Shown here in pieces: positions 4,649 to 24,481 of a DNA stretch of 36,646 nucleotides. Within the stretch, counting starts at the first letter, position 1. The number at the start of each line of letters is the position of its first letter. A program made the position numbers and the translations under genes. The notes beneath the pieces were generated by a model. The model was not told the origin of the DNA and did no database searches. It worked only from the letters and a program-made list of their open reading frames with translations. This DNA comes from an uncultured Candidatus Saccharibacteria bacterium (GTDB lineage Bacteria; Patescibacteriota; Saccharimonadia; CAILAD01; BJGX01), in contig CAZKFZ010000007.1 of assembly GCA_964552475.1 (NCBI GenBank), forward strand, positions 1 through 36,646, read 5' to 3'.

Positions 4649-4674
4649 AATTTTTCACCTCCTTTCAATTTTTC

Positions 4675-4822
4675 GAAACCTACTGCAATACTATCGTCAG
4701 ATTTTATACCACTAATATTACAGTTATACCTTCGGGCGTTAGTATTGCGGTAGGTTTCTAGATTTCGGGCCATTGAAACCCGACTACTATTATCAATATA
4801 GATAATACTGGTCGGGTTTCAA
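4675..4822. promoter_or_regulatory. two strong intergenic hairpins between the 200-aa and 189-aa surface-protein genes
   Basis: Hairpin B pairs 4675-4692 with 4741-4758 (18 positions, one T-G). Hairpin A pairs 4773-4784 with 4811-4822 (12 bp) and 4788-4794 with 4801-4807 (7 bp). Neither hairpin is followed by a clean U-tract on the minus strand. Confidence 0.5.
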
Positions 4823-4867
4823 TTTAGACCCGAGTTTATTAATTTACAATGTTAATCTACATTTTTT

Positions 4868-5470: not shown

Positions 5471-5480
5471 ATTTCCTCCT

Positions 5481-11340: not shown

Positions 11341-11658
11341 TTATACGTCTATATCGGCCTGAATGCCACCGAATTTTTTAGCAGCAACATTATAAAGTGC
11401 AGCGGTTATTAACCCCGCAATTAGTCCAATAAGTACATAGAAACCAAAAAATATTCCACCTACAAAAAGGCCACCAAATAGACCGCCCACCAAACCTAAT
11501 ATCGGATTTTTACCACTTATTCCAGCTACAACACCAATTATAAGAATTACAATTGCGTATACTGCACCAAATATCAGCCCTAGCAATCCATAGATAGCTG
11601 CTAAAATTTTGGCCACACTCATTGGCTCTAAATATTTTATTGTAACTTTTTTTGACAT
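11341..11658 (-). CDS. small Gly-rich polytopic membrane protein, DUF3566-like
   Basis: In the 105-aa ORF, the N-terminal IKYLEPMSVAKI and the C-terminal AALYNVAAKKFGGIQADIDV resemble the DUF3566 TM domain that neighbours gyrA in Actinobacteria. This family call is from memory and was not searched. Confidence 0.75.
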   Translation of the reverse strand: MSKKVTIKYLEPMSVAKILAAIYGLLGLIFGAVYAIVILIIGVVAGISGKNPILGLVGGLFGGLFVGGIFFGFYVLIGLIAGLITAALYNVAAKKFGGIQADIDV

Positions 11659-11676
11659 TAGATTAGTAGTGATTTA

Positions 11677-12282
11677 TTAGATTTTTTCTGGGTGACGAAA
11701 ACGATGAAATATAAACTCTACCACTGCACCCAAGACTGCACCAACCAGCAAGAACAGTACCAGTGTAATGCTTGGGATTAAATATCCGTAATATACAGCA
11801 ACTATATACACAACCAAACCAAGTACTAGGCCTGTGACTGATCCACCAATAAGCACCGAGGGTCTAAATATTGTTTTACCAGCAACATCACTTACGCTTT
11901 CTACGACCGGGTTGTGAACAAATTTTGAAAAAGTTCTAGATCTCTTAGGTAGTTGGTTTTGGACTTTTTTTATCTCTTTTTTATATGCAGTTTTTTTCTC
12001 AGCCTTGGTGTACTTGGCAGGAGGTTTTTCTTCGCGTTCTGGCTTCTCGTGCTTTTCTTTTTCTGCTTTTTCCTTTTCCTTGGCTAGTTCAAGTTTGTGC
12101 TTTTCTTTTTCTGCTCTCAAGACTTTCTCGGCTTCGTGGCCCTTTTGAGCAAGCTCACTTTCTTTTTTTTGCACCTCTGCTTTTATAGGCTTTTTTTCTT
12201 TAGATTTAGATAGCTCTAGATTCTTTAGTTCCGGCTTCTCGGCATTAGACTTTTCGTGTTTTTCATTAATTTTTTCAGACAT
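11677..12282 (-). CDS. hypothetical membrane protein with a Lys/Glu-rich N-terminus and two C-terminal TM helices
   Basis: The 201-aa ORF has a GGAGTG Shine-Dalgarno inside the end of the upstream gene and starts 2 nt after the 779-aa gene. Its charged KE-repeat region is followed by hydrophobic helices. Confidence 0.75.
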   Translation of the reverse strand: MSEKINEKHEKSNAEKPELKNLELSKSKEKKPIKAEVQKKESELAQKGHEAEKVLRAEKEKHKLELAKEKEKAEKEKHEKPEREEKPPAKYTKAEKKTAYKKEIKKVQNQLPKRSRTFSKFVHNPVVESVSDVAGKTIFRPSVLIGGSVTGLVLGLVVYIVAVYYGYLIPSITLVLFLLVGAVLGAVVEFIFHRFRHPEKI

Positions 12283-12284
12283 TT

Positions 12285-14624
12285 TTAGTTCACTCCATCA
12301 CTTAATGTTTCTACAAGTTCTATCTCTCTTTTGAGTAAGCGATTTCTGAAGAAAAGATATAATGAGCTGGCGGCAAAGAAACCAATAAATACCAACGGAA
12401 CAGCGTCCGATCCAGTTCTAGGTAGAGGTAGGTTAGAACTAATAAGGTTGAGGCTACATTCAATTCGCTTTGCTGGATTAACATAGAGCGGGGTTTTTAC
12501 TAGCTTGCCAAAAAACTCATCTTGTACCATACAGTCGTAGTTAGTCGTATCGGTTGGTTTATGGGCCGTTGTTGGGAGTGGGTTTTTTAGCTGAACGGTG
12601 AATTCTTTTGAAACAAAAACTAGATTACCTTCGCTAGGTGTAGGCGGAATATCTACGGCTGGCCATTTTAGTATGGTTTGGCCATCAGTTTGCTCTACAC
12701 TTGCCCCACCTGCATCCACTAAATCAGCATACTCAAGTATATCTGATATATTGTCTTGGAAAACGAAGTTACTCATGGTGGTTGCGCCAGTGTTGCTCAC
12801 ACCAATAGTATAAGTAAGTTTATCACCTGCTCTTGCAGTGGCATCATTAGCATCGGTAGGCAAGCCACCACTCGTTAGTAGAGTGAGGTTCTTTACAGTC
12901 TTTTGATAAATAGTATTTTCAACATTTATCGTAACTGTACATGTAGCATTTGTTGAAGTTGCATCATTATCGTTGGCCACTACTTCAACTCGCGCGGTAT
13001 ATCTACCTCCTTGGTTATAAGTATGTTGCAGTGCTTGAGTGAGTTGACTAGACTGCACATTTTGATTTGTGCCATCCCCAAAGTCAAACTTATACTCTTT
13101 GACAGTTGTATTGTCTACTTGTGCCTGTGCGGTCAGGGTGGTATTGAGTGGTGCAGTATCTGAAGAAGCCGGGTTGGCTGTTAGTCGCACACAGCTGAAC
13201 GTTTTTGCGGGCTCTTCACAACGAGGATCACCAACTGGGATACCTGGCCTACATTCGTCTTGTCTGGTCACACTAAATTGGGCCCAGCAATCTTTTGTAT
13301 CAGCAACCGCGACGTTATTTGCATTATAAACTCTTAACGTAATTAGGTAATTGCCTGGCTCTGTGCGCCTAAACGAATCGGCATTAAATGATACAGGGGG
13401 TTCACCCACAGGATCTCTTAGCGTGGTATTGTTATGAACAATCTTTGCAACCCCAGGTACAGGCAGGTAAAACTTACCATTCATCTTGATAGTTTGTGAT
13501 GTCTCATTAGGTGTCTCTTGATAAAGTGCATATTCATATTTGCTAGGTCTAGGGTCTGGACCAGATCCATCTGTGACCGCTGCTTTACCTGTTAACACTG
13601 GCGTAAAGGGCGCAACTCCTGTGTTGTTTTGCATTTTTAAATCATTACAAACTAGTTGTTTTGGGGTAGGAGGTGGCTGAACTATAATCCTAATGGCACA
13701 GTTTCCGGTTGCGCTACCGCGAGCCAATACGGCCGTTCCGTTATTATTAAATGACACCCAAAGTCTTACAGTAAAAGTTCCAGCATTAGGAAAGGCAAAT
13801 GTTCTTCTGTTGGGATCTTGGAACTTACCTGTTGGATTATCAGAGATACCGTTCGCCCGCTTAAGATCCCCGATTTGTTCGCCCAAATCTGTTCCGTTTG
13901 GTTTATACACTCCATAGGCCATATTAACAAGTTCACCTGGTGAAACGTTTTCGCCATTTGCTAAACCACGAAAACCAATCTCGGTGCCAGCCTGTACGGT
14001 AAATGGCCCAGTTGTACCAAGGGTGGAATCAAGCCTCTGACAGCTAATATCTTTTGTAGGTGGGGGAGTGGTTCGTTTTAAGATGATGTTACCGCAATCG
14101 AGTACTACCCCCCATTCATACCACTGACCAGTCTGGGTATCTTGAATTTTATCTTTACCTATAATGGCGCTAAGACAATTAGAATTCCAACGAGATTCTG
14201 CTGTGCCAATATATATGCCCGGTTGAAATTGGGTTGAGTTACCAAAATTTTCTCTACCCATAGATAGCCAGTTTTGGCCTTTGCAGGCTGAACCAACTGT
14301 TGCCTCTTGCATTTTAGCTTGAGATATCTGTAATCTATTAAAAACCTGCTGTATACCTGCAGGATTTTGTTGCCAAACCTTACTTATAAGTGTGCTTTTG
14401 GTAAATGGTCCGCCTGGAATAAGATCATTTGCCGATGATGCATAACTAGGCTTTGGGGGAGCAACAAAGGTTATGAATTGGAATATTAGTAAGCCTACCA
14501 TTAAGACCGATGCGAGCCTACGTGTGGCGGTTTCTTTTGAAAGTCTTTTAGCGTAAAACGCTACTTTACTTTTTGATATTGCACCAATAGAAAATTTCGT
14601 TACTATGTCTTTGAAGTTACTCAT
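12285..14624 (-). CDS. LPXTG-anchored surface protein with PKD-like and DUF11-like Ig-fold repeats
   Basis: The 779-aa ORF has an N-terminal TM/signal (LMVGLLIFQFITFVAPP...SYA). A PKD signature YKFDFGDGT...HTYNQGGRYTARVEV and a DUF11-like segment GDKLTYTIGVSNTGATT are present. A canonical sorting signal LPRTG (12411-12425) is followed by a hydrophobic stretch and RNRLLKRE. Confidence 0.88.
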   Translation of the reverse strand: MSNFKDIVTKFSIGAISKSKVAFYAKRLSKETATRRLASVLMVGLLIFQFITFVAPPKPSYASSANDLIPGGPFTKSTLISKVWQQNPAGIQQVFNRLQISQAKMQEATVGSACKGQNWLSMGRENFGNSTQFQPGIYIGTAESRWNSNCLSAIIGKDKIQDTQTGQWYEWGVVLDCGNIILKRTTPPPTKDISCQRLDSTLGTTGPFTVQAGTEIGFRGLANGENVSPGELVNMAYGVYKPNGTDLGEQIGDLKRANGISDNPTGKFQDPNRRTFAFPNAGTFTVRLWVSFNNNGTAVLARGSATGNCAIRIIVQPPPTPKQLVCNDLKMQNNTGVAPFTPVLTGKAAVTDGSGPDPRPSKYEYALYQETPNETSQTIKMNGKFYLPVPGVAKIVHNNTTLRDPVGEPPVSFNADSFRRTEPGNYLITLRVYNANNVAVADTKDCWAQFSVTRQDECRPGIPVGDPRCEEPAKTFSCVRLTANPASSDTAPLNTTLTAQAQVDNTTVKEYKFDFGDGTNQNVQSSQLTQALQHTYNQGGRYTARVEVVANDNDATSTNATCTVTINVENTIYQKTVKNLTLLTSGGLPTDANDATARAGDKLTYTIGVSNTGATTMSNFVFQDNISDILEYADLVDAGGASVEQTDGQTILKWPAVDIPPTPSEGNLVFVSKEFTVQLKNPLPTTAHKPTDTTNYDCMVQDEFFGKLVKTPLYVNPAKRIECSLNLISSNLPLPRTGSDAVPLVFIGFFAASSLYLFFRNRLLKREIELVETLSDGVN

Positions 14625-14737
14625 TTTATTTTAGGTATTTCCCCATATTAACCTTAATTTATTAATTTAAGGTTATTATAATACACAATTAGTCATAAGC
14701 ACAATAGCATTTATTATTTTGGATTATTTATGTATAA

Positions 14738-17239
14738 CTAACCCATTCGTGACGGAGTTGGCTCAGTAGAAGTTGGGCTTTTCGCGCTACTAATAGCGTC
14801 AAGGCTAGCAGCTACCTCAGCAGCTACTTGGTCTTTGGGCCTACCGAATTTTGAACGAGATAAATCACGCATTGCACTTTGTAGTTCAGTGTTTACTACC
14901 TCGTTATCTATAGGTGGATAGCCTTTCATTGAAAACGGCGTTACTGGTTTTCCATTGGCAATTATCTTTGCAATTGCATAGTGATTGGGAATATTGGCAA
15001 TATCGCTGGCTCCAAATTGGGGCTCAAACTGTTTAGCCAAGTATTCTGCATCTTCGTTGCCGACTCTATGTATTATCATACTACCAACGTTGCCAAATAC
15101 TGCATCTCTTATCTGTTCATCAATCTGTTCTATATATTGATTCGCAACAGTAAGGTTGAAGTGATACTTTCTGGCTTCAGATAATATTGTTGCAAAGCTA
15201 TCGGTGGCAATATTTTGAAATTCATCTACATATAGACCAAAATCCACACGATCATCCTCGGGTATATCAGCACGACTCATAGCAGCGACCTGTAGTTTAA
15301 TAACAAATATCATACCAAGAAGCTTGGCATTTAGCTCACCCATAAGGCCTTTACTGAGGTTTACTATTAGAATCTTGTTGTTATCCATTATGTCGCGAAA
15401 ATTAAATGCCGACTTCTTTTGTCCAATAATATTACGAAGCATTTCGTTGTTGGCTACTGCACCAAATTTTGAAGCAAAATAACCCAACATATCGGACTTT
15501 GTTCGTGCATCTGTTTGAGCCATCTCGTTTGTCCAAAAAGCTTGTACGGTAGGGTCGTCTAAGTATTTGAATTTTTTCTTAAGGTATTCGTCGTCGGTAA
15601 AGACTCTCGGTACCTCAATGTAAGATCCGCCCTCGGGGTCTGCCATCACGGTAAGTGCTGCGTTTCTGAACCAGTTTTCAAACTGTGGGCCAATCATGCC
15701 TTGATGCTGGGGATCGTAAAGCTTATAGAGCATACTTATTATCTCTTGAACGATAAAGTCTTTTTGCTCTGGTTTATTCCGGTCGTATTCCATAATATTT
15801 AAGCCCATAGGAAACTCGGTATCGCCGGGGGAGAAATATATAACATCTTCAGCTCTATCTGCAGGTATTCTACCCAAAAGTCTTTCTGCTTCATCACCAT
15901 TCGGATCAATAAAACAAAAACCTCTCCCTGCTGCCGCATCTTGTATCATCATATTGGTGAGCAATACAGATTTACCTGTACCGGTTTGACCAATTATGTA
16001 GGTGTGACGGCGTTTGTCATCTTTAGTAAGAAATATTGGTGTCTCATGACCACGAAATATATTCAAGCCAATTCTAATACCTTCAGTTGGTAAACCGCCA
16101 GGTGCAGCAACTTCTTTGGCAGCCTTGCGGTCTAAGTTAACAGCTATACCAACTACTTCACTTGGTAGATGAAATATAGTAGCAAGCTCTACAGAGTTTA
16201 GTACCATATTTTTTTTATTGGCTGGAAAAAACCTAAATATAAAATCTGTGGCTACTTTCTGGGGTTCCTTGGCAGATTTATATTTAAAGCTGTTAGCACC
16301 GCCTTGGCTAAGTTGGGCAAAGCCTAAGTTTATATCTTGAATAATTACTTTTGCTCTTATTGGATCGTCAGAGCTAGCAATAATTCTAATGGAGGTTTCA
16401 AAAGCTGGTGACTTAGCTTTTTGTTCAATCATTTCGGATTTTTTTTGATCAATTGCATCGGGCTGTTTTTCTTGGGATTGTTTATTATCGTCTTCAGACT
16501 TAGTCTTAAATGGTGCTTTAAGAACATAAGAAACTGCATCCATAGCTTTACTTGAAGGGTCGTCATTTTTTTTCTTAGGGTCCAAGACTTGTTTGGCTCG
16601 CTTAATCGCTTGCTTAGTCCATTCTGAACCGGCCGGTCTTATAAGTATTTGAATGGCCGCACCTTCATGATCGTTGAGGTTAGAAAGTCCAGAGAGCAAT
16701 CCTGTTAGTGCATCACTATCGCTTTCACGATAAGTGTTTATGGGCAAATAACTTTCCTTGGATAGCTCTAGCTCGCCACCTTGTACTCCGGCAATTTTGC
16801 TAACTTTTGAGAATATATTCACATCTTGAGCTTTTTCTATTTGTATATCAGAATAGGCCGAAGTTAGTGACTTCTGTACCGCACTTAATAATGTTACGGG
16901 TACGGCAATGTAGAAGTTTATTTGCTTACCATCGGCCACAATCTCAAAACAAACATGTTTTTTACCATAAAATTTAGATTTTTCAGTCGCAATTCCAGAA
17001 AGCAAATTAAAAACTCCCTCGGCTTTTGAGATATTCTCTTTAATTAGTTCGCGACTATCTCTAGTACCTTCTTCAGCTTCTTGTGGTGGTAGCTTAACTA
17101 GTAGTGGAACCATTTTTAGCGAACGTTCAATATCTTTACTTCGTCTTGATATCTTTCTGTACCAGAAAAACCCCACCGTACTAACGCAGGCAACAAAAAC
17201 AATAAATAAGCTTATTGAGAATAACAAAAACTGTGACAT
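14738..17239 (-). CDS. membrane-anchored FtsK/HerA-superfamily ATPase, VirD4/TraD-like type IV coupling protein homologue
   Basis: The 833-aa ORF has an N-terminal TM helix and Walker A GQTGTGKS followed by FIDPNGDEAERL...PMGLN. Walker B LYVDEFQN and ARKYHFNLTVANQYIEQ complete the layout typical of TraD/TrwB/VirD4-type proteins. Confidence 0.8.
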   Translation of the reverse strand: MSQFLLFSISLFIVFVACVSTVGFFWYRKISRRSKDIERSLKMVPLLVKLPPQEAEEGTRDSRELIKENISKAEGVFNLLSGIATEKSKFYGKKHVCFEIVADGKQINFYIAVPVTLLSAVQKSLTSAYSDIQIEKAQDVNIFSKVSKIAGVQGGELELSKESYLPINTYRESDSDALTGLLSGLSNLNDHEGAAIQILIRPAGSEWTKQAIKRAKQVLDPKKKNDDPSSKAMDAVSYVLKAPFKTKSEDDNKQSQEKQPDAIDQKKSEMIEQKAKSPAFETSIRIIASSDDPIRAKVIIQDINLGFAQLSQGGANSFKYKSAKEPQKVATDFIFRFFPANKKNMVLNSVELATIFHLPSEVVGIAVNLDRKAAKEVAAPGGLPTEGIRIGLNIFRGHETPIFLTKDDKRRHTYIIGQTGTGKSVLLTNMMIQDAAAGRGFCFIDPNGDEAERLLGRIPADRAEDVIYFSPGDTEFPMGLNIMEYDRNKPEQKDFIVQEIISMLYKLYDPQHQGMIGPQFENWFRNAALTVMADPEGGSYIEVPRVFTDDEYLKKKFKYLDDPTVQAFWTNEMAQTDARTKSDMLGYFASKFGAVANNEMLRNIIGQKKSAFNFRDIMDNNKILIVNLSKGLMGELNAKLLGMIFVIKLQVAAMSRADIPEDDRVDFGLYVDEFQNIATDSFATILSEARKYHFNLTVANQYIEQIDEQIRDAVFGNVGSMIIHRVGNEDAEYLAKQFEPQFGASDIANIPNHYAIAKIIANGKPVTPFSMKGYPPIDNEVVNTELQSAMRDLSRSKFGRPKDQVAAEVAASLDAISSAKSPTSTEPTPSRMG

Positions 17240-17248
17240 ATATGTTCC

Positions 17249-17707
17249 TTAATTGACATCTAAGTTAAATCGCTTTTTTAAATAAGAACTACTTATGTGA
17301 TTTTGGTAGTCATCTTCCACGGAGGGATCGTCCTTTTCCTTCTCTATTATCTCTTCTGTCTTTTTCACCCAAGGCTCTTCTATTAAGTCGACATCTTCAG
17401 CTTCAAGTTGATCAATAGATTTTTTAAACATTTCTCTTGCTGTGGTACTATCGGTATGAACCTGTTGGGCTTGAGGGGGTTGGGGGTTTACAACGGCTGT
17501 GGCTGTAGTTACAGGCTGTTGATTGGTAAAAGGAGCTACAGGAGTCGCTTGCGTTATCGACTCAGGTTGTTTCATAGTAGGCTGAATTTCTTGGCCAGGA
17601 GGTGCAACTTCTAAATTTTGGTTGGGCTGCGCTTTTGTGGGCTCGGGCGAGGGGTTACGCAAATTAGAATCAACATCAGTAGCAAGATGAAATCTCGGGG
17701 TATTCAT
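17249..17707 (-). CDS. hypothetical protein with a Pro/Gln/Thr-rich disordered N-terminus and an acidic helical C-terminus
   Basis: The 152-aa ORF ends 9 nt before the ATPase start. A TATAAT box lies 7 nt upstream of its ATG. Confidence 0.65.
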   Translation of the reverse strand: MNTPRFHLATDVDSNLRNPSPEPTKAQPNQNLEVAPPGQEIQPTMKQPESITQATPVAPFTNQQPVTTATAVVNPQPPQAQQVHTDSTTAREMFKKSIDQLEAEDVDLIEEPWVKKTEEIIEKEKDDPSVEDDYQNHISSSYLKKRFNLDVN

Positions 17708-17714
17708 AACAAAT

Positions 17715-17720
17715 ATTATA
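17715..17720 (-). promoter_or_regulatory. -10 box placed for a leaderless transcript (152-aa gene)
   Basis: The minus strand reads TATAAT, then 7 nt (ATTTGTT), then ATG at 17707. There is no room for a Shine-Dalgarno sequence. Confidence 0.4.
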
Positions 17721-17740
17721 CCAGTTATGTTTGGTATCTA

Positions 17741-19219
17741 CTAGACATGAATCCATACCGGTGTTCCAATGTTAGCCCAGCCAAAAAGGAATGCTGCTGA
17801 ACTTTTTGGCATATTAACGCAACCGTGACTACCACCATTTATATAGTCTTGACCCCCAAAGCTAGATCGCCAATCAGCATCATGAAACCCTGCTCCGCCA
17901 TTAAAAGGCATCCAGTAGTCTACATAGACATTATAGCTCCAGCCATACTGGCTGCCGTTTAGATATCTACTGCGTTCCTTAGCATAAATAGCAAATATAC
18001 CGGTTTGGGTGCCAAAACCGTATCCAGAAGCTCCACTAGTAACGGGGGTTGAAAAAACTACTTGGTTGTCTTGATAAGCCCAAAGCCTTTGCTGGCTAAT
18101 ATTCACCTCTATATATGTACCGTAATCAAGTCCAACACTACGGTTAGTTTCTGTCTGAAACGCCACAGGACTCGCTTGGAGATTAAAACTTACAGATTCA
18201 TTTTTACTCAGGCCAGATACAATTGCATCTACGGCTGCTTGCTGATCTACAGCACTACCATTAACACCTTCTTGCTCCACAGAAGATACGCCATTACGTA
18301 TATTTATCTTCTTATTCTTTGGTGCAATATTTACTTGGTTGGCTACACTCTGTACATAGCCCGATACCTGTTCGGGTGAGATACTCGCCACCAACTTAGG
18401 CTTGCCATCTTTGTCGATTTGTTCGTTAAAAACTATCATATGGCCAATCGCGTCTCTATCAGCAACAAAGCTTCTACCTTCATAATTTAGCGTGACTGAT
18501 TGAGATAAAAATGTTTCAGCCTGGGTTTTAGCTTCACCTGTGTCACCGGCTAATATATCAGCCTTTAGAGTTTGAGGCAATAAAAATAGACTTTGATCTT
18601 TGGCGTCCTGCAAGGATGTTGCTAGAATTTTACTTAAATACCTTTGGTCTACCCTTAGACCATCCTTGTCGGGTACAACTGTTACCTGGCCATTTTCTAC
18701 TTTTAGAGTAGCGTTCTGAGCGCTATAACCAACCGAGCTTATGACTGAATCTGTAAAACTTTTCAGCTTAGCCAGATCTACATTGTAGGCATAACCTATT
18801 TGACCTTTATTATTAATACTTGCCATATTAAGTAGAGAGAATGGTTGCCCACGACCAACACCATAGGCAGTGGCTACTGTTGTAGGAATATCATAACTCG
18901 CCCCAAGATCATCACTTGTAATAGTAAAAGACTTTTCACCCACATTTACTGTAAAGGTTCTCTGAAGTTTCTGGTTGTAAAGATAATCAAGAGTTTGCTT
19001 TCTTGTGAGAAAGCTTACATCTTTTCCAGCAATAGACACGCCAGGCGCCATTCTTCCCATTGTGATAGCCGAAATAAGAAGCTCAACAAAACAAAATATC
19101 AAAACTAAGCTAATTATTACAAAGTTTATTCTCGCACTCCTACTCGGTTTAGCACCCGAATAAGACATAAATCTAGGTAGATGTAGTTTATGAGAGTGAG
19201 GATTGGTTCTATTTTTCAT
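17741..19219 (-). CDS. L,D-transpeptidase (YkuD domain) with an N-terminal membrane anchor and PG-binding/YoaR-like region
   Basis: The 492-aa ORF ends in a catalytic YkuD domain with GFHDADWR...GGSHGCVNMP. A TM anchor INFVIISLVLIFCFVELLI is present near the N-terminus. Confidence 0.9.
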   Translation of the reverse strand: MKNRTNPHSHKLHLPRFMSYSGAKPSRSARINFVIISLVLIFCFVELLISAITMGRMAPGVSIAGKDVSFLTRKQTLDYLYNQKLQRTFTVNVGEKSFTITSDDLGASYDIPTTVATAYGVGRGQPFSLLNMASINNKGQIGYAYNVDLAKLKSFTDSVISSVGYSAQNATLKVENGQVTVVPDKDGLRVDQRYLSKILATSLQDAKDQSLFLLPQTLKADILAGDTGEAKTQAETFLSQSVTLNYEGRSFVADRDAIGHMIVFNEQIDKDGKPKLVASISPEQVSGYVQSVANQVNIAPKNKKINIRNGVSSVEQEGVNGSAVDQQAAVDAIVSGLSKNESVSFNLQASPVAFQTETNRSVGLDYGTYIEVNISQQRLWAYQDNQVVFSTPVTSGASGYGFGTQTGIFAIYAKERSRYLNGSQYGWSYNVYVDYWMPFNGGAGFHDADWRSSFGGQDYINGGSHGCVNMPKSSAAFLFGWANIGTPVWIHV

Positions 19220-19279: not shown

Positions 19280-22099
19280 TTACAAAACCTTCAAATTCTT
19301 GAATTTCTTGTGTTTTCTTAGTTTTGCAACACATTTATCAACGCTTTTGCTAATGTATTTTAAGCTTGGGTTAGAACCACAATCCAATACTATTCTAATA
19401 CTTAGCCTTTTTTTATTAATCTTAATAAGTTCTGGGTTTATAAAAACACTCACAAGCTGTACTTTTCTAATATTGTCGCTGGTAGTTAAATTGTCTACCA
19501 CATCCTGCCACCAAACATTACTATCCACTTCAATAGTAATATCGCGCTGATTAAGTTGGTAACCAAGTGGTAATTCTATTTTTGCGTACTTGGGAGTTAG
19601 TAAGTCTTGTGACATCTCAATTTCGGCATAGCTAATCTCATTGTTAAATTTTTGATTTACTAGTATTACGCTATCTACCTGTCCAAACCATCCAATAGAC
19701 TTATTATTTACCAAAATATCTGCAGCTCTACCTGGTACAAAAAGATTATTATTACCTGGAACAATTTTATGTTTCCAACGATATTTTTGAGCTATCTCTC
19801 CAATAACTGTACCTAGTCTATCGATACTATTTTTGCCCACCAATGTTATTGCTAGCTTCCACGTCTCACTCTTGCCGTGTTTTTCATTTTTTGACTTATT
19901 ATATACTCTTGAAACTTCAAAGAAACCATAGCTTTCTTTCCAGTAGTCGCGATTATTAACTGCCGTCTGTATGTGACTCATGATTAGTGTGCTACGTAAA
20001 AACTCCTGTTCTTTGCTAAGTGGGTTTACTATTTTAAAATGCTTATCGGTTTCACTTTTGGCGAGCTGGAGTTGCTTGTGACTCACAAATGAGTATGTCA
20101 TTACCTCATACAGACCATTTGTGACCAGGTTATTTTTTAATTCTTGTGCTTTTAATATAAGCTGATGGTCGGCAGTGTTTGTTGGTGGTAGCTGGGGGAG
20201 GGTGGCGGGCATATTTTCATAGCCAACTATTTTGGCTACTTCTTCATATAAATCCTGTTCTATTTTAATATCATCTCGCCACCAAGGAGCTGTAACAGCG
20301 ACTGTATGATTGAAATTATCTACATAACGTCTAGCACCAAGATAGCCAGGGTTATTTGCAAACTCTTTTAGATCAACTTCAATAACTTCTTGATTATTTC
20401 TTTTCACCCATTTTTTATTTTTATATTCATACATTGCGGCCATTACAACTTTGTTATTACCAATATACAATCCGTTGTGACCAACTTCTTTTTTTTGTCT
20501 AAGCTGTTGTTTTACGTGTTTTCCGTGGTTATCTTTTAAGTAATAGTGATCATCTACCGAATTCTCTATTTTACCTTTATAAAAAACTACATCTCCTGGT
20601 TTTAAGTTACTAACTTCTATGGCCTCTCCGTGTTCGAATTGTGCCAATGCAGTATGTCCTATGTATACGCCTATAAGTGAGTATACATAATCAATAAGAT
20701 ATGAGCAGTCAAAAGCATTAATTCCATCTTCTTTAAAATTCGCCCCCCATTTGTATGGTTTACCCAAGTGCTTTTTAGCTTCTTTGGTAATAGAGAATTG
20801 TTCAGCCTCAAACCCTCTTTTACGTAGTCCGTTAATAACCTCTTTTTCATTTAACTTAAGACCTAAGAACTTTTCGGCTTTTCGAATTCGTAATCCAGTA
20901 TGTTGAATCCAGGGCCAATCATAAAGTTGATCGAAAGGACCATTAATAATTTTGGCTTGGCAAATAGTTTTGAATAAATAAAGAAGACGTTCAGTTGCAT
21001 AAATTGAGAGGGGGAGAGGTAAGCCTTTTTCAAACCTAGCACTTGCTTCCGTGCGAATACCATGACGATTAGCCGACCTACGTATTCTAGTGGCATTAAA
21101 ATTAGCAACTTCTAATACAATCTCTTTTGTATTATTATCAACTTCGGTGTTTACACCACCCATTACTCCGGCCAAACCAATAGCACTACTATTGTCGGCT
21201 ATTACTATGTCTTCTTTACTGAGTTTTCTATCTACACCATCTAGTGTGGTAATTGTTTCGTTATTTTTAGCAAACCTAACTTGTAAATTTCCTTTTAGTT
21301 TGGTTTTGTCATATGCATGAGAGGGTTGACCAGTCTCTAGCATTACAAAGTTGGTGATATCTACAATAGGATTAATCGGTCTCATCCCAGCCGCCTGTAA
21401 GTTTTCCACAATCCAGTCGGGTGTTTTACTCTGAATATTTATTTGTAAAACTGCGCTTACAAAGCGCTTACACTCAACGGTTTCTTTGACCTTTACGACT
21501 TCTCTATCTCTAAATTCAATTTTTGCATGCTCTGGCTCAGCTAACTCAGTACCAACGGAATTTGCAAAAATTTCTCGTGCTAAACCATAAACAGAGAGCA
21601 TGTCGGGGCGGTTTGTAGGGGTCTTAATATCCACGATATCACCCATATTGTCTATGTCGCACAATGATATACCAAGGGGGAGGTCAGGGTCGAGAACAGC
21701 TATACCAGAGTGGTCATCTCCTCTACCCAACTCTCTTTCTGAGCAAATCATACCTGAAGATTTTTCACCACGTAGTACTACTTGCTCAATCTTATCACCA
21801 CTTGGTAAAATTGCACCTGGTTTTGCATAGGCTACTACTTGACCTTCTCTTATATTCGGGGCACCACAAACCACCTTAGCTTTAGTTTTACCAAACAAAA
21901 CTTCTGCGACTTTCAAACGATCGGCATTTGGATGTTGCTTAGTTTTTAAAACCCTAGCAGTTACAATTTTCACATCTAAGTTATTAGAAGTTATAATTGA
22001 CTCCACTTCAACTTCTGTTTTCTCTAGCGCAGTGACAATACTGTCTGTACTAAGAGGTTTTTTAAAGTATAGGTTTAAGAAATTAACAGGTAAAAGCAT
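19280..22099 (-). CDS. pheT: phenylalanine--tRNA ligase beta subunit carrying an inserted NlpC/P60-like domain
   Basis: The ORF shows a tRNA-binding OB domain (HPNADRLKVAEV...CGAPN), a B3/4 domain (NRPDMLSVYGLAREI), a B5 domain (VTAPWWRDDIKIEQDLYEEVAKIVGYENMP) and a C-terminal FDX-ACB-like domain. I place the start at ATG 22099, one nt after the pheS TAA, rather than at the overlapping track start 22144. Confidence 0.93.
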   Translation of the reverse strand: MLLPVNFLNLYFKKPLSTDSIVTALEKTEVEVESIITSNNLDVKIVTARVLKTKQHPNADRLKVAEVLFGKTKAKVVCGAPNIREGQVVAYAKPGAILPSGDKIEQVVLRGEKSSGMICSERELGRGDDHSGIAVLDPDLPLGISLCDIDNMGDIVDIKTPTNRPDMLSVYGLAREIFANSVGTELAEPEHAKIEFRDREVVKVKETVECKRFVSAVLQINIQSKTPDWIVENLQAAGMRPINPIVDITNFVMLETGQPSHAYDKTKLKGNLQVRFAKNNETITTLDGVDRKLSKEDIVIADNSSAIGLAGVMGGVNTEVDNNTKEIVLEVANFNATRIRRSANRHGIRTEASARFEKGLPLPLSIYATERLLYLFKTICQAKIINGPFDQLYDWPWIQHTGLRIRKAEKFLGLKLNEKEVINGLRKRGFEAEQFSITKEAKKHLGKPYKWGANFKEDGINAFDCSYLIDYVYSLIGVYIGHTALAQFEHGEAIEVSNLKPGDVVFYKGKIENSVDDHYYLKDNHGKHVKQQLRQKKEVGHNGLYIGNNKVVMAAMYEYKNKKWVKRNNQEVIEVDLKEFANNPGYLGARRYVDNFNHTVAVTAPWWRDDIKIEQDLYEEVAKIVGYENMPATLPQLPPTNTADHQLILKAQELKNNLVTNGLYEVMTYSFVSHKQLQLAKSETDKHFKIVNPLSKEQEFLRSTLIMSHIQTAVNNRDYWKESYGFFEVSRVYNKSKNEKHGKSETWKLAITLVGKNSIDRLGTVIGEIAQKYRWKHKIVPGNNNLFVPGRAADILVNNKSIGWFGQVDSVILVNQKFNNEISYAEIEMSQDLLTPKYAKIELPLGYQLNQRDITIEVDSNVWWQDVVDNLTTSDNIRKVQLVSVFINPELIKINKKRLSIRIVLDCGSNPSLKYISKSVDKCVAKLRKHKKFKNLKVL

Positions 22100-22100
22100 A

Positions 22101-23093
22101 TTAAAATTGCTCCAAAAAACTAAATCTTGGGCGCCATAACTCACGCAGATCTGTCAAGCCATATTTTATTACCGCAAACCTCTCTGCTCCCCATCCAAAC
22201 GCAAACCCTGTGTATATATTAGGGTCTACCCCACCGTTTCTTAATACTTGGGGATGTACCATACCCGCACCGCCCAACTCTAGCCATTTTTCGTTGTACC
22301 AACAGTCTAACTCAACAGATGGTTCGGTATAAGGAAAATAGCTCGCTCTAAATCTTATCTCAACATCAGGTCCGAGTAGCCCCCTTACGACAGTCAGTAA
22401 TGTTCCTTTAAGATCAGACATCGAAACACCCTCACCTACTACCAAGCCTTCCACCTGGTTAAAAATCCAGGCATGTGTAGCATCTTCATCTTCATTTCTA
22501 AAAACTCTACCGGGCACAATGATTTTATATGGCGGTTTATTTTGCTCCATAAATCTTACTTGCATACCAGATGTATGTGATCGTGGCAAAAGGTTCATTT
22601 TGCCATTATCAATATAAAAAGTATCCTGCATATCTCTAGCTGGATGTGAATCAGGCATGTTGAGAGCTTCAAAGTTATACCAATCAGATTCTATCTCTGG
22701 ACTATCGACAATTGCAAATCCCAACTCTGTGAATATCTTATAAGTCTGAGACAACACCAAGCTTGTAGGGTGAAAGTGGCCGTAGCTATACCCATATATA
22801 CTATTTAGCAAACTAAGATCTTTAGGTTCATAAAAGCTAGTTGTGTTTATACGAGTTAAGGCCTCTCTAAACATTGCTTCAAGTTTATTTCTCGCTTGGT
22901 TTAGATTTTTACCTGCATTTACCTTATCAGCTAATGTAAGATTTGGAAGGTTCCTTAACTCCTTCGATAAAGCACTATCTTTTCCTAAATAATTAGATTT
23001 AGCCTTATCAAGATCACTTTTCGAACCAGCTTTTTCAAAAGCAATTCTAGCAACTTCTATATAATCATTTGAGATTGATTTAAAATTATTCAT
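22101..23093 (-). CDS. pheS: phenylalanine--tRNA ligase alpha subunit
   Basis: The 330-aa ORF contains class II motifs such as FRASYFPYTEPSVELD and GAGMVHPQVL...GFAFGWGAERF. Confidence 0.96.
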   Translation of the reverse strand: MNNFKSISNDYIEVARIAFEKAGSKSDLDKAKSNYLGKDSALSKELRNLPNLTLADKVNAGKNLNQARNKLEAMFREALTRINTTSFYEPKDLSLLNSIYGYSYGHFHPTSLVLSQTYKIFTELGFAIVDSPEIESDWYNFEALNMPDSHPARDMQDTFYIDNGKMNLLPRSHTSGMQVRFMEQNKPPYKIIVPGRVFRNEDEDATHAWIFNQVEGLVVGEGVSMSDLKGTLLTVVRGLLGPDVEIRFRASYFPYTEPSVELDCWYNEKWLELGGAGMVHPQVLRNGGVDPNIYTGFAFGWGAERFAVIKYGLTDLRELWRPRFSFLEQF

Positions 23094-23104
23094 AAATACT
23101 GCCT

Positions 23105-23491
23105 TTATGCTTTTCTGGTTCTAAAATACAGTTCAATAAGTAGTACTGTAAGAGCAAAAAGTATTATATCTCTTATACTTAAACTCTTTAGGCTAGAAAG
23201 TGCTAATAACAGAGTTAAGGCAAAGCCTATTAAAAAGCCAGTTCTTAGAGATTCTATTATTATCTTGCTAGGCTGCATGCGTTTTTCTTCAATCCTTAAC
23301 TTTAAGAGATAATCTAGTAAAGTTATTAAGCTAGACAAACAAGCAAGTATTCCAACAAACCAAAAGGTTATTGCGGCTGGTCCAAGCATTCTTGGAGTAA
23401 AATTAAACATCACATATATTACAGTGCTGAAGGAAATTACAAAAACTATGCTTAAAATAGAGATTGTTATAGTTATGGTCCTATTTCTCAT
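23105..23491 (-). CDS. hypothetical polytopic membrane protein
   Basis: The 128-aa ORF has about four hydrophobic helices and lies 11 nt upstream of pheS on the same strand. Confidence 0.65.
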   Translation of the reverse strand: MRNRTITITISILSIVFVISFSTVIYVMFNFTPRMLGPAAITFWFVGILACLSSLITLLDYLLKLRIEEKRMQPSKIIIESLRTGFLIGFALTLLLALSSLKSLSIRDIILFALTVLLIELYFRTRKA

Positions 23492-23867
23492 ATGTATACT
23501 CTATTATCTGACAAAAGTGATTAATTGTACAGTATAAAGCCATAGGTGCGTATAACGACAATTAATTTGCTCAAATATTGAACACATTATATATATTACT
23601 AATCAGTATGTGCTTAATGAGTATATTTTTTGTTCTTTTTATATTAATAACAATTTTTAGTATTACAATAATTTAACTTGTTAGTATTGTTGTTGCGTAA
23701 CTAAGTTATAAGTTTAGCTACATAAGCTGATTATGTCTAAGCTACGATTAAATTTGTGGATATTGTGTATAACTCGAAAAATTTCTGTTAGCATTTTATA
23801 ACATTAAAATGATTTGTATTAGTTTTTTATGTTAGTGAATATCGACATATTATGTAAAGTGTTTTTA

Positions 23868-23893
23868 TATAAAAAATCGCCAGTAACGGCGAT
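23868..23893 (-). terminator. rho-independent terminator of the unclassified RNA
   Basis: The minus strand reads ATCGCC-GTTACT-GGCGAT followed by TTTTTT. The stem pairs 23876-23881 with 23888-23893, and the A-run on the plus strand is 23871-23876. Confidence 0.6.
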
Positions 23894-24394
23894 TAATTTT
23901 AGAATTATTGCAATATGGTTACGGGCCAACGTATCTGCCCTGTAAAAGTAAAACTTTAAGTGGCACACGCTGGCCCGTTAAAGTCTGCTCTAAAAGCGAT
24001 TCTAAAGCGGACATTGGCTGTCAATTCACAATATCTACAAAAGATAGCAAAAATTGTGGTTGACGACTTCCCTACCACTCTTTTGGCAGTCCGGCTAGAC
24101 TATGCACCCCAAAAAAATAGGGCGCAAAGTCTAGCCGTCTCCGTCGGAATGATAGCGCTATATATAACTAGGTAAGGTGCAAAACGGTTTGTATTTTGTA
24201 TTATATATAGCATAAACCTCGAACAGTAGGGAAAATCTGGTCATAAAAAGCAAGGGGGCTGCTTTTTATGAACCAGGTCTTCCCTACCGAGCAGGATAAC
24301 GGCGATCCTTTATAGTTCATGGATCGTAACATTGTATTGATAAAACATATGTGTGTGGCATATTTTTATTTTTGTTTTTAATGAACTATTACTT
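23868..24394 (-). ncRNA. unclassified structured non-coding RNA (~525 nt transcription unit)
   Basis: No ORF of 60 aa or more lies on this strand, and the unit is bracketed by a consensus promoter (24401-24429) and a hairpin+U6 terminator. The 23920-24330 core is visibly more GC-rich than its AT-rich flanks. Helix set 1 is 24226-24233/24280-24287, 24237-24241/24272-24276 and 24242-24252/24260-24270. Helix set 2 is 24093-24101/24128-24136 plus 24103-24109/24120-24126. Helix 3 is 24027-24032/24053-24058. Helix 4 is 23921-23932/23967-23978, and its loop (23953-23959) can pair with 23978-23984 to form an H-type pseudoknot. Two helix positions are G-U on the minus-strand RNA but A-C on the plus strand. 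Confidence 0.55.
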
Positions 24395-24400
24395 AGTACA

Positions 24401-24429
24401 ATTGTATCAAATGCTTATGTTTATGTCAA
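24401..24429 (-). promoter_or_regulatory. near-consensus sigma70-type promoter driving the unclassified RNA
   Basis: The minus strand reads TTGACA (24429-24424), a 17-nt spacer, then TACAAT (24406-24401). It lies ~55 nt downstream of the trpS stop. Confidence 0.6.
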
Positions 24430-24481
24430 TATTTATTAACGTAATTATTACAATCATACCTGTTGAGCTATATAGACTTAT

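Follow-up and report, generated by a model that had tools for sequence, protein, structure and literature searches.

A VirD4-like membrane ATPase and its small partner gene in Saccharibacteria, a candidate motor for a separately encoded T4SS

The window, a stretch of 36,646 nt from an uncultured Candidatus Saccharibacteria bacterium (contig CAZKFZ010000007.1), holds a run of six minus-strand ORFs around an ATPase gene related to type IV coupling proteins (T4CPs), and farther upstream a gene for a small membrane protein:

17741-19219, minus strand: L,D-transpeptidase (Ldt), 492 aa; Pfam YkuD (3e-24) and two PG_binding_4 matches
17249-17707, minus strand: small soluble partner gene, 152 aa, matching no family
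14738-17239, minus strand: T4CP-like ATPase gene, 833 aa, on which the feature centres, from the ORF call
17162..17230, minus strand: TM anchor of the ATPase, aa ~4-26, from the sequence, followed by the basic stretch YRKISRRSK
16064..17122, minus strand: N-terminal domain of the ATPase, aa 40-392, with a predicted fold that resembles the VirB4 N-terminal domain
14840..16063, minus strand: VirD4/TrwB-like nucleotide-binding domain, aa ~393-800, from Foldseek, profiles and Pfam/NCBIfam
15968..15991, minus strand: Walker A, GQTGTGKS, aa 417-424, from the translation
15425-15769, minus strand: predicted helical insertion, all-alpha-domain-like, aa ~491-605, from DSSP on the AF2 model
15212..15235, minus strand: Walker B region, LYVDEFQN, aa 669-676, from the translation
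12285-14624, minus strand: PKD/DUF11 surface protein, 779 aa; Pfam PKD (1e-11) and DUF11 (5e-5)
11677-12282, minus strand: K/E-rich protein, 201 aa, with two C-terminal TM helices
11341-11658, minus strand: Gly-rich hydrophobic ORF of unknown status, 105 aa, with three hydrophobic segments
23105-23491, minus strand: 4-TM protein, 128 aa, a possible third component of the ATPase unit

ORF calls and translation bore out the gene run described in an initial annotation of this DNA: all six ORFs lie on the minus strand with the coordinates and lengths it gave, the gaps between them are 33, 9, 113, 2 and 18 nt (it had given a range of 2-113 nt), and the motifs GQTGTGKS, FIDPNGDE, LYVDEFQN and ARKY...ANQ are all found in the ATPase. 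The surface protein ends in LPRTG, a hydrophobic stretch and a basic tail, and its gene forms an operon-like pair, across the 2-nt gap, with that of the 201-aa protein, for which a match to EssA stayed below threshold. That the six genes are co-directional is unremarkable, because the run sits inside a stretch of about 30 kb (384-30528) in which 22 of 22 main genes lie on the minus strand, pheST, gyrBA, trpS and a UvrD-like helicase gene among them. Promoter-like and terminator-like sites do not exceed their frequency in shuffled sequence, GC content is even across it, and no window ORF of at least 80 aa belongs to a VirB4, VirB6, relaxase or sortase family.

A family of membrane-anchored motors of the conjugation type (VirD4-like), already catalogued, is widespread in Patescibacteria, and the ATPase is its Saccharibacteria copy. 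Its placement in the T4CP (VirD4/TraD) branch of the FtsK/HerA superfamily, proposed earlier from the motifs, is supported by Pfam and NCBIfam matches that are weak but consistent (TrwB_AAD_bind, 8e-6; TraG-D_C, 9e-5; SXT_TraD, 4e-13), by a profile of the ATPase run against PDB sequences (TrwB, 6e-8; DotL, 5e-6), and by Foldseek, in which the nucleotide-binding domain aligns with TrwB at TMt 0.60-0.67 over ~440 columns and also matches Cag-beta and DotL. Across 78 homologues, residues G417, Q418, T419, G420, G422, K423 and S424 of Walker A are invariant and T421 is kept in at least 90%; D672, E673, F674, Q675 and N676 of the Walker B region are likewise invariant. The window protein and every CPR homologue scanned have one hydrophobic segment, and since this single N-terminal TM helix is followed by the basic YRKISRRSK, the remainder of the protein is predicted to be cytoplasmic. 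The full-length AF2 model (pLDDT 84) predicts an architecture of TM helix, VirB4-NTD-like domain and TrwB-like domain with helical insertion. In close homologues the N-terminal domain is Pfam PF26449 by precomputed annotation (a family that falls into 1,240 clusters at 50% identity; of 150 listed, nearly all carry the domain close to the N-terminus), and a local copy of Pfam gives no match for this region in the window ATPase. When the domain was modelled separately (AF2; pLDDT 85.6, pTM 0.83), all 14 Foldseek matches in the PDB with E<=1e-3 were TrwK/VirB4 chains (E 6e-7 to 2e-4, TMq 0.41-0.47), and the best match after them had an E-value of 4.5e-3 and a probability of 0.28. Profile-versus-sequence comparison of this domain gave no sequence signal for VirB4, and the model suggests a resemblance at the fold level only (TM about 0.45). 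Of the searches that the initial annotation had advised, those with sequence profiles return T4CP families for the ATPase; the VirB4/TrwK matches of its N-terminal domain come from the structure comparison. An assignment of the ATPase to FtsK, which the annotation had named as the alternative, was rejected; the related Southlakia epibionticum has a separate canonical FtsK (SEML1_0096), which is essential.

The ATPase has more than 2,900 homologues, the best 120 of them at >=49% identity, and is found in Saccharibacteria, Microgenomates, Parcubacteria, Berkelbacteria, Dojkabacteria and Doudnabacteria, with about 40% identity between CPR classes. Housekeeping genes always flank it in related loci, among them genes of DNA metabolism (gyrBA in Saccharibacteria; dnaX, a xerC-like gene and RNR in other classes), and identity to the window protein tracks that of GyrB (r = 0.88, n = 27). 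Viral relatives number only 17, weak and confined to the nucleotide-binding domain, in 2.9 million viral contigs. Neither the window nor 80 related loci contain a T4SS or relaxase gene near the ATPase, and virB4 is linked to it in none of the 80; the earlier description of the ATPase as a lone one was therefore correct. The ATPase unit belongs to the chromosomal core of Patescibacteria, is inherited vertically and has been kept by nearly all of them.

This unit consists of two genes, those of the 152-aa protein and the ATPase, and maybe a third; it is not a six-gene module. The expectation of a conserved neighbourhood held for the small gene beside the ATPase and failed for the adhesin, the 2-TM protein, the 105-aa ORF and Ldt, as the comparison of 80 loci across Patescibacteria shows. 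The 152-aa gene ends 9 nt before the ATPase start codon, and its product combines a variable, P/Q-rich N-terminus with a conserved, helical C-terminal stretch of ~55 aa (nt 17252-17416), whose block 'DLIEKEWVxKAKxIVxxTKDDPYxQ...ADYLKKRY' is kept in 31 Saccharibacteria loci. A small soluble co-directional ORF occupies position -1 of the ATPase in 32/32 Saccharibacteria loci and 28/37 other CPR loci, often no more than 15 nt away or overlapping (11 of the 32 Saccharibacteria loci have a 1- or 4-nt overlap with the ATPase start), and these proteins show no detectable homology between CPR classes. The third part, in Saccharibacteria only, is possibly the 4-TM protein (23105-23491): its homologue adjoins the 152-aa gene upstream in most Saccharibacteria, a small 3-5-TM protein is encoded at -2 in about 24 of 32 loci, and the C-terminal pattern 'SLxxLxxRD...Y..R' of the 128-aa protein is common to the -2 ORFs of L005-L036, a homology judged by eye and position, without a statistical test. 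In the window and in its three closest relatives (L001-L003), the 4-TM gene is set apart from the 152-aa gene by pheS, pheT and Ldt.

Functional information comes from S. epibionticum ML1 (Wang et al., 2023; PMC10633639, Tables S1 and S2). Its gene order runs YifB, a 117-aa and a 139-aa protein, a 1019-aa 'TraM recognition domain' protein, then a 193-aa and a 535-aa DUF11 protein (both on the opposite strand), gyrB, gyrA and PAP2 (PMC10633639), and the order and sizes of SEML1_0140-0147 match Saccharibacteria loci L005-L034. The gyrB-gyrA-PAP2 linkage is common to the window and S. epibionticum; the window differs by an upstream insertion of pheST and Ldt and by an inversion of the 779/201-aa pair. 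From synteny and gene sizes, not from sequence comparison, we infer that SEML1_0142 is the ATPase orthologue; it is annotated with a TraM-recognition domain and a P-loop domain at aa 381-800 (PMC10633639), and it has 1019 aa against 833 aa in the window, whose clade has no long C-terminal tail. In Tn-seq SEML1_0142 scored ES/ES/ES, class I essential (called at T0), and SEML1_0141, the positional orthologue of the partner, GD/ES/ES, essential with 0 insertions; the 4-TM counterpart SEML1_0140 was NE/GD/GD, a growth defect only, and SEML1_0143 and SEML1_0144, orthologues of the 201-aa and 779-aa proteins, were NE, non-essential (PMC10633639). The counterpart of the ATPase, its orthology taken from synteny, is thus essential in S. 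epibionticum, the one tractable species. The same genome carries a second ATPase paralogue, SEML1_0293, which is non-essential.

We favour, with a probability of about 0.5, the reading that the unit is the substrate motor of the separately encoded, relaxase-less, FATA-derived T4SS of Patescibacteria. VirB4 clusters occur in 2,417 of 3,035 Patescibacteria genomes, and almost all Patescibacteria T4CP homologues lie far from virB4 (PMC12102498); their VirB4 proteins form a clade inside the monoderm MPF-FATA class. The T4SS of S. epibionticum (SEML1_0006-0019), itself essential, 'lacks recognizable coupling and relaxase proteins'. That a T4SS elsewhere in the genome accounts for the ATPase, one of the circumstances in which the initial annotation would have given up its own proposal, is plausible from this literature (PMC12102498). 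Hexamer formation, docking to the T4SS, the nature of the substrate and what the partner does are inferred as follows. The ATPase, a motor of hexameric type, would sit at the cytoplasmic face of the membrane and use ATP to recruit and push a macromolecular substrate, protein or nucleic acid, most probably into that separate, essential T4SS with no recognised coupling protein. The small partner may be an adaptor or regulator, like the accessory proteins of other T4CPs. Such proteins are common, as in DotL with IcmSW and Cag-beta with CagZ.

Several observations weigh against a T4SS motor and speak for a second reading, in which the ATPase with its small partner, and possibly the 4-TM protein, is a self-contained, essential translocase that works independently of a T4SS at the cytoplasmic membrane. 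No physical or genetic link to a T4SS, virB4 included, is seen in the window and 80 loci. T4CP homologues occur in more genomes than VirB4 (2,918 vs 2,417 of 3,035), although the former count includes FtsK-like t4cp2 hits (PMC12102498). SEML1_0142 is class I essential and most T4SS genes of S. epibionticum are class II, so loss of the ATPase may do harm sooner than loss of the T4SS. SPO1-like phages encode a member of the family beside a Replic_Relax protein and have no T4SS, and the ATPase family can therefore act outside one. The T4SS-motor reading is further weakened by an orthology of SEML1_0142 that comes from synteny, with the paralogue SEML1_0293 in the same genome, and by -1 proteins that are not detectably homologous across CPR classes and an N-domain call made at the fold level. 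A translocase of this kind would move nucleic acid or protein by itself, for example to handle host-derived nucleic acids or as part of a DNA transaction linked to replication or segregation, and would derive by exaptation from a conjugative coupling protein; it has been suggested in print that Patescibacteria t4cp is perhaps 'exapted for other functions', the ATPase repeatedly adjoins DNA-metabolism genes, and in Saccharibacteria its unit encodes a 4-TM protein. However, housekeeping neighbours are expected by chance in CPR genomes, which are largely housekeeping, one TM helix per subunit offers little from which to build a channel, and the 4-TM gene SEML1_0140 gave only a growth defect. S. 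epibionticum also has its canonical, essential FtsK, and comEC-dependent DNA uptake is dispensable in it. No T4CP is known to translocate substrates without a partner channel. We regard an independent translocase as a serious alternative, though less probable than a motor for the T4SS.

The initial annotation had proposed instead that the ATPase, the LPRTG/PKD protein, the 2-TM and Gly-rich proteins and Ldt form a minimal translocation or attachment module. Beyond the tight co-directional packing already discussed, this very improbable reading can draw on homologues of the 779-aa protein, each directly followed by a 201-aa homologue in either orientation of the pair, near the ATPase in 25 Saccharibacteria loci. 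The pair lies on the opposite strand in 20 of these 25, however, is missing between ATPase and gyrB in about 10 Saccharibacteria loci, and stands beside the ATPase in no other CPR class; Saccharibacteria synteny is high anyway, with gyrBA, YifB, a PAP2-like gene and an upstream cluster (IF-3/L35/L20 in S. epibionticum) holding their positions. SEML1_0143 and SEML1_0144 are non-essential while SEML1_0142 is essential, Ldt adjoins the unit in the three closest loci only, and the 105-aa ORF matches no family of Pfam, NCBIfam or PHROGs and gives no tblastn match in any of the 80 loci. The module is largely refuted by this neighbourhood analysis: adhesin, 2-TM protein, Ldt and 105-aa ORF owe their place near the ATPase to synteny or lineage-specific rearrangement and stand outside its unit. 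Least credible is a remnant or cargo of an integrated ICE, plasmid or prophage, a reading that family names derived from conjugation and the closest non-CPR relatives, which sit on plasmids and phages, might suggest, and that is contradicted by core-gene flanks (pheST, gyrBA and others), a window with no integrase, relaxase, tRNA (ARAGORN finds no tRNA gene) or repeat boundary, uniform GC content, an orthologous position in dozens of genomes with divergence that tracks GyrB, and an essential syntenic orthologue.

Compared with known systems, the ATPase shares its superfamily and membrane anchoring with FtsK/SpoIIIE, but the FtsK_SpoIIIE match is weak and limited to the P-loop (E 0.0066), the 4-TM, alpha and gamma domains are absent, and the FtsK-like t4cp2 hits of Patescibacteria are distinct genes. 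With VirB4 (R388 TrwK, 7O42/7O43/8RTD) it shares a layout in which a RecA-like ATPase at the C-terminus follows a ~400-aa N-terminal domain and Walker A lies at about residue 420-440, and Foldseek with the full-length model has its best E-values for VirB4 (8e-16), yet at low TM-scores (0.29 full length, 0.41-0.47 for the N-domain). No VirB4 sequence family matches the ATPase significantly (AAA_10, 0.039; the TIGR00929 match covers the P-loop only), its gene does not adjoin VirB3, VirB6 or VirB8, and the published VirB4 of Patescibacteria is a different gene elsewhere in the genome.

Full-length homology, N-domain and nucleotide-binding domain together, extends to 'DUF87 domain-containing' ATPases of Bacillaceae plasmids. 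The homologue on Bacillus subtilis plasmid NZ_CP154917 (WP_345805471.1; E 3e-39 over aa 88-776, 23% identity over 726 aa) belongs to a conjugation cluster and lies directly upstream of genes for a Replic_Relax protein, TcpC, TcpE and an AAA_10 VirB4-like ATPase, an arrangement repeated on Shouchella clausii plasmid NZ_CP012476. Phage family phrog_5156 (SPO1-like phages, CP-51, phage G gp156) matches the window ATPase at 3e-100 over aa 81-814. In the plasmids and SPO1-like phages, the ones checked for it, a Replic_Relax (PF13814) gene follows, whereas no Replic_Relax homologue was found near the CPR genes. The N-terminal TM helix sets the ATPase apart from these relatives: hydrophobic segments are absent from the Bacillus plasmid homologues and from SPO1L1 gp68, and in phage G gp156 they are internal, none N-terminal; identity to the plasmid relatives is about 23%, against about 40% between CPR classes.

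The best sequence-profile matches are to VirD4/TrwB/TraD proteins (R388 TrwB 1E9R/1E9S/1GKI; SXT and TOL TraD; DotL; Cag-beta), with which the ATPase has in common FtsK/HerA-type Walker A and B motifs, a TraG-D_C region, a helical insertion in the nucleotide-binding domain and an N-terminal membrane anchor, although its T4CP-family scores fall far under the curated cut-offs (SXT_TraD, 48.8 bits vs 366). It differs from these T4CPs in having one TM helix instead of two, in the predicted additional VirB4-NTD-like domain of ~350 aa between anchor and nucleotide-binding domain, and in adjoining neither relaxase nor mating-pair-formation genes; its gene sits on the chromosome, is inherited vertically and, judged from the orthologue, is essential.

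The conserved core of this region is a pair of genes, encoding a small upstream partner and the coupling-type ATPase, and the pair is a vertically inherited Patescibacteria trait of the type IV coupling protein (T4CP) lineage. In the window, itself a chromosomal segment of a Saccharibacteria-type (Patescibacteria/CPR) genome whose sequence type occurs in sludge and wastewater metagenomes, the pair and the genes that bear on it are arranged as follows:

841-1650, minus strand: DUF212/divergent-PAP2 protein, 269 aa
6545-11170, minus strand: gyrB and gyrA, immediately downstream of the six genes grouped by the initial annotation
14738-17239, minus strand: coupling-type ATPase, 833 aa
17249-17707, minus strand: small partner of 152 aa, directly upstream of the ATPase
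19280-23093, minus strand: pheS and pheT, immediately upstream of the six genes
23105-23491, minus strand: gene for a small protein with four TM segments (4-TM)

When one genome was scanned per species, 597 ATPase relatives came up, and the 80 loci retained cover Saccharibacteria; Microgenomates (Levy-, Davies-, Woese-, and Curtissbacteria); Parcubacteria (Uhr-, Magasanik-, Moran-, Staskawicz-, and Sungbacteria); and Berkel-, Dojka-, and Doudnabacteria. The window proteins were located in these loci with tblastn, and every flanking ORF was assigned to a cluster. Only one feature persists across the whole set, a small soluble ORF immediately ahead of the ATPase and in the same orientation (32 of 32 Saccharibacteria loci and 28 of 37 others); it often overlaps the ATPase start or ends within 15 nt of it. 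The Saccharibacteria partner has a variable, P/Q-rich N-terminus and a well conserved C-terminal block of ~55 aa, and the upstream proteins of other CPR classes carry class-specific conserved C-termini. Because an HMM of the Saccharibacteria block found nothing significant in the other classes (best E 0.03 and 0.12), it is position, and not sequence, that argues for homology of these proteins across classes. The 152-aa protein belongs to no family in Pfam, NCBIfam, or PHROGs; a weak PDB-chain profile match of its C-terminal block (17252-17416, minus strand) to YoeB, with E 0.002 over ~35 residues, is probably due to chance, and we rejected that identity. The ATPase itself is 49-99% identical among the best 120 homologues and ~40% identical between CPR classes. 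Across 78 sequences, Walker B and many other positions are invariant, as is Walker A except for T421 (at least 90% conserved), and divergence within Saccharibacteria follows that of GyrB (r = 0.88, n = 27), as vertical inheritance predicts. The family duplicates occasionally, since one non-Saccharibacteria MAG contig (L042, 1182-~6400) carries two tandem copies of 819 and 858 aa and Southlakia epibionticum has a dispersed paralogue, SEML1_0293. The unit supported by these comparisons is the small partner and the ATPase, to which the 4-TM protein may add a third part in Saccharibacteria.

The assignment of the ATPase to the T4CP family, first made from motifs that are indeed found in the translation, is supported by family-model matches and by a TrwB-like predicted fold. 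Across 17 members, TrwB_AAD_bind matched all 17, TraG-D_C 16, and T4SS-DNA_transf 8; the window ATPase gave weak Pfam matches to TrwB_AAD_bind, TraG-D_C, and DUF87, its profile matched TrwB at 6e-8, and TraD-type coupling-protein models ranked best in NCBIfam, but far below their curated equivalog cut-offs. Homologues bear Pfam PF26449 in precomputed annotation. The AF2 model (pLDDT 84) comprises an N-terminal TM helix, an alpha/beta domain of ~350 aa, and a RecA-like domain interrupted at aa ~491-605 by a helical insertion. The membrane anchor is a single hydrophobic helix (aa 4-26) followed by a basic stretch, and it occurs in every CPR homologue scanned. In Foldseek searches, the C-terminal half of the model superposes on TrwB (TMt 0.60-0.67 over ~440 columns), Cag-beta, and DotL, and for the whole chain full-length VirB4/TrwK takes the best E-values. 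When the N-domain was modelled alone (pLDDT 85.6), its sole significant matches were 14 VirB4/TrwK chains (E 6e-7 to 2e-4, best probability 1.0; TMq 0.41-0.47, rmsd ~10 A), beyond which the list falls off sharply to unrelated folds; when the 17-sequence alignment was compared by hhalign with a single VirB4-like protein from a plasmid, only the Walker B region aligned. The predicted structure suggests that the N-domain is like the N-terminal domain of VirB4, a likeness that we confine to the level of the fold because the TM-scores are modest and sequence gives no signal. The N-domain family comprises 1,240 clusters at 50% identity, with the domain at about residues 40-400 in nearly all of the 150 matches listed and with full-length members of 800-2,000 aa.

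Published transposon data bear on the importance of this pair. Southlakia epibionticum is the only genetically tractable species, and its type IV secretion system (T4SS) is essential (Wang et al., 2023, PMC10633639). Tn-seq Table S1 of that study matches the Saccharibacteria gene order exactly, and the order of SEML1_0138-0147 recurs in our loci L004-L034:

SEML1_0138: YifB, not essential
SEML1_0140: 117 aa, NE/GD/GD
SEML1_0141: 139 aa, small gene upstream of SEML1_0142, GD/ES/ES, zero insertions recovered
SEML1_0142: 1019 aa, 'TraM recognition domain' protein, ES/ES/ES
SEML1_0143: 193 aa, opposite strand, not essential
SEML1_0144: 535 aa, DUF11, opposite strand, not essential
SEML1_0145 and SEML1_0146: gyrB and gyrA, essential
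SEML1_0147: PAP2, essential

The position of the SEML1_0142 orthogroup is matched in the window by the 152-aa gene, the ATPase, a pair of genes for 779-aa and 201-aa proteins, gyrB, gyrA, and the DUF212/PAP2 gene, and by this synteny-based orthology the ATPase orthologue is apparently essential. The main text of the Wang et al. study (PMC10633639) does not name SEML1_0142 or SEML1_0141. The paralogue SEML1_0293 (921 aa) is non-essential (PMC10633639), has the stronger T4CP Pfam matches, and is probably the "non-essential t4cp" cited by Quinonero-Coronel et al. (2025, PMC12102498). In the published accounts consulted, we found no distinction drawn between a gyrB-linked orthogroup, essential along with its small partner, and a non-essential paralogue.

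Patescibacteria account for a large part of bacterial diversity and are dependent on host cells. VirB4 was found in 2,417 of 3,035 of their genomes, where it branches as a clade within the monoderm MPF-FATA class and often lies near dnaA, and the same survey counted 5,713 T4CP matches in 2,918 genomes, just 148 of them near virB4, and relaxases in 103 genomes only (Quinonero-Coronel et al., 2025, PMC12102498). Its Table S3 gives one or two t4cp1 matches per genome plus FtsK-like t4cp2, all far from virB4, and its authors describe t4cp as possibly "exapted" (PMC12102498). A "lone" coupling protein is therefore already on record, a T4CP far from virB4 is a known phenomenon in CPR, and, the ATPase family being catalogued in the literature, this instance is not new. 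In S. epibionticum, the T4SS cluster is essential and lacks recognisable coupling or relaxase proteins (Wang et al., 2023, PMC10633639). The most economical mechanism, to which we assign a probability of about one half, is that the ATPase is the missing substrate-recruiting motor of this separately encoded, relaxase-less Patescibacteria T4SS: it would recruit substrates for the system, and a VirB4-like N-domain would suit docking on the inner-membrane platform. We favor this reading because both the ATPase and the T4SS occur nearly throughout the phylum, descend from monoderm conjugation machinery, and are essential in Southlakia (the ATPase by synteny-based orthology), and because T4CPs are commonly encoded away from mating-pair-formation genes. 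The orthologues of SEML1_0141 and SEML1_0142, which are to be kept distinct from the non-essential SEML1_0293, form a specific, phylum-wide, apparently essential gene pair that is the best candidate for the missing T4SS motor, with an independent essential translocase as the alternative. As a concrete candidate for coupling in an essential secretion system, they can be tested in Southlakia.

That second possibility, an essential translocase that works independently of the T4SS, is the main rival, less probable in our view but still live. Several observations point toward it: linkage to virB4 is wholly absent from the loci compared, T4CP matches are more widely distributed than VirB4, the ATPase is class I essential versus class II for most T4SS genes, and the phage relatives of the ATPase work without a T4SS. 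More speculative still, and improbable in our estimation, is a Patescibacteria-specific form of this idea in which the partner, the ATPase, and perhaps the 4-TM protein would together make an essential T4SS-independent translocon, its motor being an exapted coupling protein with a VirB4-like N-domain, an evolutionary intermediate between VirB4 and VirD4, whose substrates would be macromolecules, host-derived or self, moved at or across the cytoplasmic membrane. If true, this would help explain the lifestyle of these ultra-small epibionts.

A mobile-element origin of the ATPase gene is poorly supported, even with the relatives that tblastn of the ATPase found on plasmids and phages, which are full-length and cover both the N-domain and the nucleotide-binding domain (NBD). 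Those on Bacillaceae plasmids carry the annotation "DUF87 domain-containing protein"; in B. subtilis NZ_CP154917, the homologue (pairwise E 3e-39 to the window ATPase over 726 residues) stands ahead of genes for a Replic_Relax protein, TcpC, TcpE, and an AAA_10 VirB4-like ATPase, and a Shouchella plasmid has the same arrangement. We rejected the label pLS20-like for the Bacillus plasmids, as the VirD4 of pLS20 itself is a conventional T4CP with two TM segments. In phages, PHROG family phrog_5156 (unknown function), found in SPO1-like phages, CP-51, and phage G, matches the window ATPase at 3e-100, and SPO1L1 (phage locus L082, 5773-9313) encodes a full-length homologue with a Replic_Relax gene directly after it. 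Because the TM anchor is absent from the plasmid homologues and SPO1L1 gp68 (and from the N-terminus of phage G gp156), because no Replic_Relax relaxase was found near the CPR genes (best E 0.5 in the 80 loci and 0.28 in the window), and because viral relatives are few and weak (only 17 among 2.9 million viral contigs), the CPR gene is a chromosomal descendant, equipped with a membrane anchor, of an ATPase lineage associated with conjugation and phages, and not mobile-element cargo. The window also contains no tRNA genes and no compositional break, and the relatives on viral contigs match in the NBD only, all of which counts against a mobile-element origin. We did not find the full-length kinship with plasmid and phage ATPases beside Replic_Relax proteins stated in the published accounts consulted, nor the VirB4-like fold predicted for the N-domain; that this coupling-protein lineage may have kept such an N-domain bears on the evolution of the two T4SS ATPases. 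As separate observations, in phage G (L084, 2273-6415 for gp155-gp156) the homologue gp156 comes after gp155, annotated 'VirB-like', and it is puzzling that lytic Bacillus phages carry a conjugation-type ATPase paired with a relaxase.

Also poorly supported is the module of adhesin, membrane proteins, and transpeptidase around the ATPase that the initial annotation proposed, as these surroundings are not conserved as a unit across Patescibacteria and the 152-aa gene alone shows consistent linkage to the ATPase in co-occurrence and co-orientation over the 80 loci. Its description of the genes was accurate: the six ORFs (492, 152, 833, 779, 201, and 105 aa) lie on the minus strand with gaps of 33, 9, 113, 2, and 18 nt, and profile searches bore out the domain calls, with YkuD and two PG_binding_4 domains in the 492-aa L,D-transpeptidase (Ldt) and PKD, DUF11, and a C-terminal LPRTG sorting signal in the 779-aa protein. 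Tight same-strand packing carries little information here because the main genes between 384 and 30528 all share the minus strand. The usual Saccharibacteria order is a small 3-5-TM protein, the 152-aa homologue, the ATPase, the 201-aa/779-aa pair, gyrB, gyrA, and a PAP2-like gene. The 201/779 pair is on the opposite strand in 20 of 25 loci, is absent between the ATPase and gyrB in ~10, and among the loci compared never stands beside the ATPase outside Saccharibacteria, where the ATPase is flanked by housekeeping genes (class II ribonucleotide reductase, cobalamin adenosyltransferase, dnaX, an xerC-like recombinase, and cysS). Ldt, pheS, and pheT adjoin the unit only in the three closest relatives (L001-L003; 3 of 80 loci), and there, as in the window, they split the 4-TM gene from the 152-aa gene; tblastn found a homologue of the 105-aa ORF in 0 of 80 loci. 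In annotation, the neighboring adhesin, membrane proteins, and L,D-transpeptidase should not be labelled as secretion-system components. Three RNA runs of the source study yielded two tiny metatranscriptome contigs only, in the 201-aa gene and pheT, and are uninformative on co-transcription because neither covers the ATPase; a promoter and terminator scan gave counts no higher than in shuffled sequence, and operon boundaries therefore cannot be drawn.

Several other features of the window deserve mention. PheT (954 aa, 19280-22144, minus strand) contains an NlpC/P60 peptidoglycan-hydrolase-type domain at aa 461-547 (E 8e-13), between B3_4 and B5, an unusual fusion for a tRNA synthetase. Its tblastn HSPs to L001-L003 cover nearly the whole query (from ~aa 10-16 to 942-953), so the insertion is probably common to these closest relatives. 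Just upstream of the 4-TM gene, a ~1-kb gap (23492-24481) has the lowest GC of the window (0.29) and contains ORFs of at most 71 aa; a plus-strand ORF of 92 aa (24351-24629) overlaps its last ~130 nt only. The gap gave no tRNA, tmRNA, or Rfam match even at E<=1, and an Rfam search of the window likewise found no match. In S. epibionticum, too, long stretches upstream of SEML1_0140 carry no annotation. Four secreted or anchored proteins (728, 189, 200, and 288 aa; 1786-6347, minus strand) belong to no Pfam family; the first three have repeats such as 'TGPNSNN' and 'GDAxSG', and the 200-aa protein has its own LPRTG sorting signal. The DUF212/divergent-PAP2 protein is roughly double the size of its counterparts in Saccharibacteria (144 aa in L025), with additional C-terminal hydrophobic segments and weak SLAC1 and holin-like matches. 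The first plus-strand gene after ~30 kb of minus-strand genes is a 669-aa ORF (30580-32589) without a Pfam or NCBIfam family.

Among known systems, FtsK/SpoIIIE, which had been raised as an alternative identity for the ATPase, is rejected: the only match is to the P-loop (FtsK_SpoIIIE, E 0.0066), the alpha and gamma domains are absent, and S. epibionticum has a separate canonical FtsK, the essential SEML1_0096 (PMC10633639). The ATPase also differs from the VirB4 sequence families (AAA_10, CagE_TrbE_VirB, and TIGR00929), matching AAA_10 at E 0.039 and TIGR00929 at the P-loop only, with 19 bits against a cut-off of 643. From the T4CPs (VirD4/TraD/TrwB) it differs in standing alone, as the initial annotation had described it: relaxase and mating-pair-formation (VirB4, VirB6, and VirB8) genes are absent from the window and from the 10 kb around the ATPase in the 80 loci, and sortase families are absent from the ORFs of the window. 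It nevertheless shares with them an FtsK/HerA-type NBD, the Walker A and B motifs, and family-model similarity, along with, in the predicted structure only, an all-alpha-like insertion in the NBD and a TrwB-like fold. Like them, it has an N-terminal membrane anchor, but one made of a single TM helix where canonical VirD4 has two.
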